A stretch of DNA of 64,000 bases from a virus (Duplodnaviria; Heunggongvirae; Uroviricota; Caudoviricetes): IMG/VR virus record IMGVR_UViG_2734482790_000004, one strand, 5' to 3'. The notes under the pieces are model-generated. The model was not told the origin of the DNA. It did no database searches and saw nothing but the letters and a program-made list of their open reading frames with translations. Made by a program: the position numbers and the translations under genes. How positions within the stretch are numbered: position 1 is the stretch's first letter; each line of letters begins with the position of its first letter. Shown here piece after piece: positions 33,747 through 35,110 of the stretch.

Positions 33747-33823
33747 CAACAGGTAAGGGCGCTGGTGTGATTAACCAGATGAACGAGAAGGGGCCATCTG
33801 TTGGTCAGCGTCCTTTCCTGTTG
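33747..33823 (+). repeat. Structured stem-loop module M1 (CAACAGGTAAGGGCG ... CGTCCTTTCCTGTTG)
   Basis: 15-bp imperfect inverted repeat enclosing an internal hairpin; shares 5' arm with M2-M4. Confidence 0.35.
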
Positions 33824-34028
33824 CGTCTTCTTTTCAGCGTAACAGCGGTGCTTAACAGCACTTTGGGTACAGTTCCACGAATTTACGGGTATATCCCGTC
33901 ATGCTGAAAGCGCTAATCACGCTGGAAGCCAGGGTTATGCATCCCCTGTTACCGAATTGCAGCCAGGGCGCGGTGCGCCGAAAAGCATACGGAGGTGGAA
34001 GCCCTCGCCGGAGACGTACCCGGCAAGT

Positions 34029-34104
34029 GATGGTGTAGCTCAGCGGTTAGAGCGGTTGACTGTTAATCAACGGGTCGATGGTTCAAATCCATCCACCATC
34101 GCCA
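34029..34104 (+). tRNA. tRNA-Asn (anticodon GTT)
   Basis: Cloverleaf by eye: acceptor GATGGTG/CACCATC, anticodon loop CTGTTAA, T-loop TTCAAAT, CCA encoded. Confidence 0.85.
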
Positions 34105-34106
34105 AT

Positions 34107-34182
34107 GCCGGTTTAGCTCAGTTGGTAGAGCGCCTGCCTTGTAAGCAGGATGTCAGCGGTTCGAGTCCGTTAATCGGCACCA
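34107..34182 (+). tRNA. tRNA-Thr (anticodon TGT)
   Basis: Acceptor GCCGGTT/AATCGGC, anticodon loop CTTGTAA, T-loop TTCGAGT, CCA encoded. Confidence 0.85.
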
Positions 34183-34185
34183 GCA

Positions 34186-34270
34186 CAACAGGTAAGGGTA
34201 TTTTGCGACGTCGGAGATCGCCGAGCTTGGCAGAGGGTTCGAATCCCTACGAAGTACCCTTACCGTTGTG
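34186..34270 (+). repeat. Structured module M2; long stem enclosing a tRNA T-arm-like hairpin (AGGGTTCGAATCCCT)
   Basis: CAACAGGTAAGGGTA ... TACCCTTACCGTTGTG; starts 4 nt after tRNA-Thr. Confidence 0.35.
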
Positions 34271-34400
34271 ATGAATGCGCAGGCTGATGCGCGAAAGACA
34301 TTGCAGCTATTGCGGAAAAGAGCTGTTCGGCGGGGCAATTAAACGCCCGTGAGAGTCTGAAATAACCGCAAGCCGGAGATCAGCACCGGTCATCACAACA

Positions 34401-34466
34401 CAACAGGTAAGGGCATTCTCCCTTATGGGGCTTGGCTTAAATGCATCGAGTGCTCTTACCGTTGTG
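34401..34466 (+). repeat. Structured module M3
   Basis: CAACAGGTAAGGGCA ... TGCTCTTACCGTTGTG. Confidence 0.35.
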
Positions 34467-34607
34467 ATGAAGTGCAGCTCTTTGAAGCAACCAGAAGATA
34501 AGCATCTGGCTTCACAACATAAACCGCAGGAACGACCAATAAACGGTAGTCCGTATGGAGAACACCCCGTTGAGGAAGAGGCCTGGCCGGAACCGTAACC
34601 GGCACTA

Positions 34608-34697
34608 CAACGTTGAGAACACTGGCGTAACGGGGTCATATCCCAATCTACGAATAAATGTTGCGTTGCAGCGTGACAACCAGTGTTCTCAACATTG
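34608..34697 (+). repeat. Structured module M5 (18-bp stem)
   Basis: CAACGTTGAGAACACTGG ... CCAGTGTTCTCAACATTG; internal GGGGTCATATCCC hairpin. Confidence 0.35.
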
Positions 34698-34884
34698 TGG
34701 TGAATGCACAGGCTGATGTGCCGCAACTACAGTAGTGCGCGCTTTGCGGGGCTTGCTACAACCCTGTGTCGGAGTTCAGCACCGACCATCACAGTTTGAT
34801 TCTCTGGCATGAGCATAACGCTGAAATAAGTCCAGCCTGGTGCGGCCCGATCACCCGCCGTTAGCTCCACGAAACGGAGCACGT

Positions 34885-34957
34885 AACAGGTAAGAGCATT
34901 CTCCTGTAACGGGTTCATATCCCAATCTACAGGTCCACCAAGAATGCTCTTTCCGTT
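34885..34957 (+). repeat. Structured module M4
   Basis: AACAGGTAAGAGCATTC ... GAATGCTCTTTCCGTT; internal GGGTTCATATCCC hairpin. Confidence 0.35.
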
Positions 34958-35110
34958 GCGGTGAATGCGGCTAAGCGCACGCGGGGAAATGGTTATATCA
35001 GTCCATTCATTTCTCCTTGTTTCCCCGTCCACGGTGGATAACCAGCCAAAGGACACCGGGAGGCACCCGGCACCGCAGCTTTTTTATTCGTTAAATAATG
35101 GAGTGAGAGG

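Follow-up and report, generated by a model that had tools for sequence, protein, structure and literature searches.

The window analysed here, a stretch of 64,000 nucleotides (nt) from a P1-like phage (IMG/VR record IMGVR_UViG_2734482790_000004), contains an array of five long stem-loops, hereafter modules 1 to 5, which are interleaved with a tRNA-Asn gene, a tRNA-Thr gene and several structured units. The five modules are conserved RNA hairpins of a family that is widespread and unannotated in P1-like and lambdoid phages and prophages. We favour, with moderate confidence, the explanation that these hairpins act as RNase III punctuation marks in a tRNA and small RNA (sRNA) operon carried by the repressor-controlled early leader RNA of the phage. 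According to the annotation of P1 (NC_005856), the array constitutes the non-coding leader of the C1-repressed ban operon. Positions 33600-35100 show 99.7-99.9% identity to the phages vB_EcoM-813R1 and RCS47, and 98.8% identity, with one gap, to reference P1.

All five modules follow the plan of the family, which consists of a 6-bp base helix (CAYAAC/GUUGYG), a bulged A or a mismatch or neither, 12-16 bp of additional, covarying helix, and a variable tip. The inverted repeats flanking each module are 13-23 nt long with 83-93% complementarity, and none of 200 dinucleotide shuffles folds as well as the corresponding module. The fold z-scores against these shuffles are given below, together with the scores obtained with R1, a covariance model (CM) of the family whose construction is described further on.

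33745-33825, + strand: module 1 (CACAAC...GUUGCG), without a bulge and with no GUGRUGAAUGC unit after it; z -5.5; R1 25.1 bits.
34184-34270, + strand: module 2, with a bulged A at 34190 and a three-way-junction tip comprising a canonical T-arm at 34234-34246 (T-arm motif scan); z -5.3; R1 57 bits.
34399-34466, + strand: module 3, with a bulged A at 34405 and a short tip without T-arm; z -5.0; R1 50.7 bits.
34603-34702, + strand: module 4, with a 23-bp stem made of different, fully covarying arms (GUUGAGAACACUGG/CCAGUGUUCUCAAC; inverted repeat I1) and a C.A mismatch replacing the bulge; z -7.1; R1 29.8 bits.
34882-34960, + strand: module 5, with a bulged A at 34888 and, three pairs above it, a U.U mismatch; z -6.5; R1 53.1 bits.

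A first-pass annotation, made by reading the DNA, had described five long stem-loops in this region, and the inverted repeats, the folds and the covariance model all confirm them, with refined coordinates. The stems, which had been put at 15-18 bp, are real and measure 19-23 bp once the base helix and the bulge are counted; a mismatch is frequently present three pairs above the bulge. With regard to the flanking sequences, the motif GTGRTGAA(T)GC, said to follow every module, follows modules 2-5 and is missing after module 1, and the first base of the module 2 helix is 34184, which is one base past the tRNA-Thr CCA and not 4 nt after this gene. T-arm-like hairpins had been seen in three interiors. 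That of module 2 (AGGGTTCGAATCCCT) is canonical, whereas those of modules 4 and 5 are not, having TCATAT loops with a T at the place of A58 of the T-loop. The compensatory change noticed in a small hairpin downstream of the modules (GCGCA/TGCGC versus GCACA/TGTGC) is genuine and distinguishes positions 34277-34292 from positions 34706-34721. As at first reading, no known RNA family could be assigned: at the gathering score and at E<=10, Rfam yielded no family for the modules, the only matches being chance ones to microRNA precursors, which arise because the modules are long hairpins.

The family was collected by scanning IMG/VR with two patterns derived from the conserved junction that follows the hairpins and then extracting the hairpins upstream. 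The extracted hairpins share the same base helix and 3' flank. Their arms have many different sequences, which are still complementary, and their tips vary in sequence and, from 9 to 97 nt, in length. The hairpins are always located at unit boundaries, beside tRNAs, DicF leaders or STnc100-like units. As the basis of model R1 we used a plain MAFFT alignment of the trimmed arms of 29 hairpins, in which 82% of the cells are paired, compared with 41-58% in controls with slid partners; as this alignment put the variants without a bulge (module 4, L012, L030 and module 1) out of register, it understates the pairing. When R1 was applied to the whole 64-kb window, it retrieved exactly the five modules, all on the + strand (25-57 bits, E ~1e-13 to 1e-4), while scores on the minus strand did not exceed 13 bits. 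Since four of the five modules are in the training set of R1, this search measures how distinctive they are and is not a discovery. The same model also detected the hairpin over 100 more times in viral contigs of P1-like and lambdoid type.

The arms of these hairpins change in a coordinated manner. In a CM-fitted alignment of 42 distinct sequences, 92.3% of the cells are paired, as opposed to 36-61% with slid partners, and 11 of the 18 pairs have changed on both sides, in a total of 72 cells. The covariation score of this alignment is 0.376, compared with 0.186 for shuffled alignments, and was reached by none of 500 shuffles. Whole arms have even been exchanged with preservation of pairing (GGUAAGAGCA/UGCUCUUWCC, GUUGAGAACAC/GUGUUCUCAAC and UGGGAUUGCA/UGCAAUCC), and module 1 exhibits compensatory changes in phage D6. 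The third pair above the bulge is usually mismatched: members of the common type have U.U there, and those of the type found in the Qin prophage have A.C. This covariation across the family bears out the earlier proposal that the region is under selection for RNA structure. G.U pairs outnumber A.C pairs by 73 to 18, and by 53 to 38 in a second set in which one column is a conserved A.C. Because G.U exceeds A.C and because the minus-strand CM scores stay at or below 13 bits, the functional molecule appears to be an RNA read from the + strand.

Modules 2-5 each precede a structured unit of the form GUGRUGAAUGC...CAYCACAAC that is akin to STnc100 as well as to the DicF leader. The four units are the following.

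34265-34399, + strand: unit B2, with closing stem GUUGUGAUG/CAUCACAAC (10-bp perfect inverted repeat I22) and first hairpin GCGCAGGCUGAUGCGC; identified by folding and by matches to phages mEp460, IME207 and 1720a-02.
34461-34517, + strand: unit B3, short (GUUGUGAUGAAGUGC...CUUCACAAC); direct-repeat families D1 and D2; folds with a closing stem, with a z-score of only -1.3.
34695-34797, + strand: unit B4, with closing stem UUGUGGUG/CAUCACAG and first hairpin GCACAGGCUGAUGUGC, compensatory with respect to B2; families D1 and D2, and fold.
34955-35092, + strand: terminal unit B5, STnc100-like, closed by UUGCGGUG/CACCGCAG and followed by a U-run; Rfam RF02076, fold z -3.3.

The match of B5 to RF02076 covers positions 34957-35077 of the window and positions 31-147 of the model, with 37.8 bits (E 3.8e-6), below the gathering score of 47; the matches in relatives, at 33-44 bits, are below this score as well. 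Units B2-B4 had no Rfam match. Positions 34264-34400, which comprise B2, are 98% identical to non-coding DNA of the lambdoid phages mEp460, IME207 and 1720a-02, where this element precedes a DicF-like sRNA and is located just downstream of a cI-like repressor gene, in the early-left leader. The ends of the units are complementary to each other (GUUGUGAUGA with UCAUCACAAC, 10 of 10 pairs), and isolated units fold with this closing stem. The GUUGUG at the start of a unit also forms, however, the 3' strand of the preceding hairpin's base helix, and the two pairings are therefore mutually exclusive. When the uncut context is folded, the hairpins win over the closing stems of the units.

The curated STnc100 family seems to start inside a hairpin that its model omits. 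Model positions 1-30 overlap the 3' arm of a family hairpin at L132 8470-8665 and at L036 7224-7446 (- strand).

The functional reading of the hairpins comes from the dicBF locus of the Qin prophage of K-12. The order at this locus (L007) is a hairpin (1673-1758), a 137-nt leader, DicF (1883-1935), an STnc100-like unit with a 19-bp closing stem, and dicB, while in mEp460 a hairpin is followed by the 137-nt element shared with the window and by a DicF-like terminator sRNA. The Qin hairpin belongs to the same family as the modules of the window: R2, a model built without any Qin-type hairpin, has its sole + strand match at the K-12 locus at L007 1671-1766, upstream of dicF (25.4 bits, E 2.7e-5), and also finds Qin-like copies in other prophages (28-31 bits). 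A 190-nt DicF species is lost in an rnc mutant, and its 5' end, mapped by primer extension, results from cleavage by RNase III (Ragunathan et al. 2023, PMC10448788). A distance of 190 nt upstream of the DicF terminator corresponds to approximately L007 1746-1752, which is the bulge or mismatch zone in the 3' arm of the hairpin; the mapped 5' end of the 190-nt species would accordingly lie inside the Qin family hairpin. A supplementary figure shows a sequence that begins within the hairpin loop (PMC10448788). A second RNase III cut makes the 3' end of the 72-nt DicF, and this cut falls at approximately L007 1954, a position in the 19-bp stem that closes the STnc100-like unit. The modules have the intramolecular helix of about two turns (~20 bp) of an RNase III substrate, as their stems are 19-23 bp long with one bulge or mismatch.

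The transcript that would be processed in this way is associated, upstream of and within the array, with the following features.

33344-33377, + strand: C1 operator Op72/Oban (ATTGCTATAATAAATTT, read directly) and ban promoters, the presumed start of the array transcript; P1ban, P2ban and the Obanab operator were transferred from NC_005856.
33400-33562, + strand: dicF-like unit, whose leader is a homologue of the 5' portion of the 190-nt DicF precursor of K-12 and whose 3' hairpin, with an intrinsic terminator, is a different one; alignment, terminator scan and the P1 label "dicF-like region".
33537-33562, + strand: intrinsic terminator of the dicF-like unit (terminator scan).
34029-34104, + strand: tRNA-Asn (GTT); ARAGORN, Rfam 74.5 bits.
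34107-34182, + strand: tRNA-Thr (TGT); ARAGORN, Rfam 72.9 bits.

The coordinates of the operator and promoters are approximate, with an offset within ~4 nt. As a sigma-70 promoter scan of 33200-36600 gave no match, the P1 annotation and the operator sequence are the basis for the ban promoters. ARAGORN and Rfam agree on the two tRNAs that had been described as interleaved with the modules. Co-transcription of the modules with these tRNAs had also been proposed, and what stands of this is that the modules and the tRNAs share a strand and that the annotated ban promoters, controlled by C1, lie upstream of the modules.

We propose that transcription starts at the C1-repressed ban promoters and that the transcript would comprise, in this order, the dicF-like unit, module 1, tRNA-Asn, tRNA-Thr, four repeats of a hairpin and a structured unit, an SPFH gene, tRNA-CAT and ban. 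The host RNase III would cut each 19-23 bp hairpin near its conserved bulge or mismatch, 7-10 bp above the base, and these cuts would part the tRNAs and the sRNA-like units from one another. Once a hairpin is cut, its 6-bp base helix would fall apart, and GUUGUGRUG, now a free 5' end, could anneal to CAYCACAAC farther downstream and so provide each unit with a closing stem with paired ends. We adopt this RNase III reading because the Qin member of the family coincides with an RNase III-dependent end, the structure is conserved, the RNA is read from the + strand, the hairpins lie at unit boundaries, and the ends of the units are complementary. That the P1-type copies are cut as in Qin is probable by homology, and refolding after cleavage is suggested by the two exclusive pairings.

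Several points weigh against this explanation. The Qin cut is placed by length arithmetic only, within ~3 nt, and the fit to RNase III was judged on the length and distortion of the helix. CM-fitted alignments are biased toward the modelled structure, although the unfitted alignment agrees in direction. With respect to refolding, the closing stems of the B units of the window are only 8-10 bp long, and for two B units the fold is not better than that of shuffled sequences (z -0.9 and -1.3). Expression of the array would require transcription past the terminator at 33537-33562. Finally, a pure cleavage-signal role explains neither the hypervariable tips nor their excess of T-arms: of 82 distinct hairpins, 8 have a canonical T-arm, compared with 0.11 expected, which corresponds to an excess of ~70-fold, and these T-arms belong to 3-4 independent tip types.

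There is a modest chance that the hairpins do another job at the RNA level, such as protection of the neighbouring tRNAs and sRNAs from exonucleases, binding of a protein of the phage or the host at the bulge or mismatch, or termination or antitermination of the leader, RNase III cutting being incidental or absent. The conservation of the bulge and mismatch looks like a protein-recognition feature, and an early leader has to read through terminators. Moreover, most 3' arms contain a boxA-like string, the commonest 3' arm (GUGCUCUUUCC) resembling boxA (UGCUCUUUAACA). This string is nevertheless absent from the covarying variants (module 4, the Qin type, L012 and L132), so it is not the conserved feature; it would also be buried in a stable helix, and the coincidence of the Qin member with an RNase III-dependent end speaks for cleavage. 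In the window, the resemblance concerns the string GUGCUCUU(U/A)CC in the 3' arms of modules 1, 3 and 5 (e.g. 34450-34460 and 34946-34954), which is shared by most family members. The resemblances to boxA and, below, to attC sites served as leads only.

The T-arms in the tips suggest further roles. An unlikely one is that the stems are a delivery frame and the tips a payload: RNase III would excise the tips as small structured RNAs, those with T-arms could serve as decoys or sponges for tRNA-binding factors of the host or for defence nucleases targeting tRNAs, and recombination within the conserved stems and at the junctions would swap the cassettes. If this were true, the array would be a modular and exchangeable RNA arsenal of tRNAs, sRNAs and tip cassettes, expressed at once on derepression.

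It is more doubtful still that the modules as such are tRNA-like or Y-RNA-like decoys, an identity suggested by the first-pass annotation, with a bulged stem and an elbow-like tip that would bind Ro60/Rsr or enzymes and nucleases recognising tRNAs. The T-arm enrichment is in keeping with this view, and so is module 2, where the canonical T-arm and a second hairpin form a three-way junction. Compared with YrlA and other bacterial Y RNAs (Chen et al. 2014, PMC4201824), the modules are alike in their long terminal stem with a bulge and, for module 2 only, in a T-arm within a multi-branched tip. They differ in the following respects: they have no invariant T and D arms, their tips are not conserved, and the 5' Rsr-binding motif of YrlA, GNCGAAN0-1G, is absent from their 5' arms. 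No module matched the YrlA model (RF02553) at E<=10, the sole match (25.6 bits, for a gathering score of 69) being on the two true tRNAs at 34049-34166, and no rsr or Ro60 gene is found among the annotated neighbours of the array (dmt, the SPFH protein and ban), the rest of the window having had no TROVE scan. The Y RNA reading is therefore rejected on three defining features. As for tRNA likeness, the Rfam tRNA model (RF00005) matched no module at E<=10 in a 2.1-kb search, and ARAGORN found only the three true tRNAs of this region (Asn, Thr and CAT), none of them on a module. A T-arm is absent from 74 of the 82 distinct hairpins, modules 4 and 5 have no equivalent of A58, tips vary from member to member, and in phage Ro157c2YLVW the counterpart of module 5 has lost its tip, a T-arm-like hairpin, and retained its stem. 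The excess of T-arms leaves room for a tRNA-mimic role of some tips, whereas such mimicry fails as a description of the family.

The most tRNA-like tip observed by eye belongs to a 131-nt hairpin of phage 1720a-02 (L006 2377-2507, also present in L107 and L127), which bears two canonical T-arm-like hairpins (CTGGTTCAATTCCAG and GTCCGTTCGATTCGGAC).

Very unlikely, in our view, is a function at the DNA level, in which the inverted repeats would be recombination sites shuffling tRNA and sRNA cassettes, either attC-like or by homologous recombination. Relatives do differ from each other in entire units whose junctions fall within the repeats: in P1 the missing segment is precisely B2 and module 3 (215 nt), modules 4 and 5 are fused in SJ46, Ro157c2YLVW has gained a tRNA-Tyr and a small open reading frame (ORF), and D6 has gained a tRNA-Ser/Sec-like gene. 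The modules share with integron attC sites the imperfect inverted repeats ending in AAC...GTT, the extrahelical base, the variable centre and the cassette-like gain and loss. They differ from them in that the attC consensus RYYYAAC/GTTRRRY is replaced here by CACAAC / GTTGTGR, that the genes annotated next to the array include no integron integrase, and that the preponderance of G.U over A.C pairs, together with the strand asymmetry, speaks for a + strand RNA. In addition, ordinary homologous recombination between the repeats accounts for the gains and losses of units without a dedicated site.

Two additional class II tRNA genes were observed in these relatives. In Ro157c2YLVW, a tRNA-Tyr (L003 2010-2096) is located between tRNA-Asn and tRNA-Thr, and in D6 a tRNA-Ser(UGA)/Sec-like gene (L004 2545-2631) is located between a B unit and a hairpin, with a score of 43 bits to tRNA-Sec, below the gathering score.

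The view that the modules are decayed tRNA genes, or that the region encodes the minus-strand proteins Plp and Upl, is almost certainly wrong: despite the T-arm-like hairpins and the plp and upl genes annotated here in the P1 and RCS47 records, the 19-23 bp stems covary and match no tRNA model, which discards tRNA pseudogenes, and coding is discarded because the ORFs have no Pfam domain, are interrupted by in-frame stops in six relatives (L003, L037, L039, L040, L168 and L140) and change in length with the gain and loss of units. The ORFs 34307..34726 and 34727..35056 (- strand) are thus antisense shadows, as had been noted at first reading, and plp ("putative lipoprotein") and upl of P1 are probably mis-annotations over structured RNA.

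Regarding the surroundings of the array, the gene order in P1 is the end of dmt, Op72/Oban with P1ban and P2ban, the "dicF-like region", tRNA-Asn, tRNA-Thr, plp and upl on the minus strand, tciABC, tRNA-Ile(CAT) and ban. In the window, the array is followed by the SPFH gene, tRNA-CAT and ban. The SPFH/Band 7 gene (35328-36155, Pfam 9.7e-31) stands where P1 has tciABC; it is labelled "putative serine protease" in RCS47 and Ro157c2YLVW, and its domain is SPFH/Band 7. The alignment with the K-12 DicF leader shows long conserved blocks across positions ~33408-33510, and the "dicF-like region" of P1 (33400-33562) matches the leader part of the K-12 190-nt DicF precursor, not DicF itself. As this region is homologous to the leader of the precursor and ends in its own terminator hairpin, the primary transcript from Pban, of ~185 nt, would mimic the 190-nt species made by RNase III.

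Between tRNA-CAT and ban, a conserved non-coding element (36262-36450) exhibits a mean column identity of 82% with the early-left leader of mEp460 (L005 2250-2440) and with D6 (L004 3690-3880). In mEp460 and D6, the counterpart of this element is directly followed by a family hairpin, whereas there is none at this place in the window. Just upstream of ban, positions 36464-36473 (TTTCTGGTGA) match exactly the first 10 nt of DicF (UUUCUGGUGA), which may be due to chance or be a remnant. Further Rfam matches above the gathering score in the window concern the sok antitoxin, the C4 antisense RNA with its a1/b1 targets, and the JUMPstart element (58017-58191, - strand; 61496-61581, - strand; 61649-61701, - strand; 63947-63985, + strand).

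P1 and the Qin/Stx-type prophages are among the most heavily studied elements of E. coli, yet the region appears in their annotation as two doubtful antisense proteins or as a blank. A match is carried by 1,264 of 5,426 complete E. coli genomes, and RefSeq has no feature under it among the matches listed. Rfam holds no model for these hairpins, which are a candidate for a new Rfam family. In the literature, we found them nowhere described as a motif or family, older work not being covered, so that an earlier mention is possible; a text search for the motif strings returned only unrelated primers, and a preprint on the transcriptome of P1vir and hfq contains nothing on this region. The family would provide a shared processing logic for DicF, for STnc100/PasD-like sRNAs and for phage tRNAs, predict the true ends of these RNAs, and explain the gain and loss of units in the arrays.

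Among known systems, the classical punctuation by RNase III includes the early sites R1-R5 of T7, the N-leader site of lambda, the processing stems of rrn operons and the tRNA cluster of T4. The modules resemble these sites in being long imperfect hairpins with an internal distortion, located between the units of a polycistronic RNA, which a host enzyme frees or, here, would free. In contrast, they form a different sequence family, the units released would be tRNAs and sRNA-like RNAs instead of mRNAs or rRNAs, and their tips are hypervariable, some of them bearing T-arms. With regard to STnc100 (RF02076), this RNA is related to the Hfq-bound PasD sRNAs of prophages of enteropathogenic E. coli (EPEC) (Zhu, Shabalina and Storz, bioRxiv 10.64898/2026.05.13.724894). 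The likeness lies in the unit after module 5, which matches positions 31-147 of the model, and in the phage context, while the differences are that every match stays below the gathering score (34-44 versus 47 bits) and that the hairpin itself is outside the structure of the model. The closest comparison is the dicBF locus of Qin (PMC10448788), which has the same hairpin family (R2, 25.4 bits) and the same order of hairpin, leader, sRNA and STnc100-like unit within an early operon under repressor control; the window also contains a homologue of the DicF leader. It differs in that Qin has one hairpin, compared with five interleaved with tRNAs in the P1-like array, and in that cleavage was shown for Qin only. 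The proposed mechanism is therefore known in kind, as RNase III processing of a phage polycistronic RNA, and the new elements are the conserved hairpin family, the arrangement of its members in tandem to separate tRNAs and sRNA-like units, and its variable, T-arm-bearing tips.

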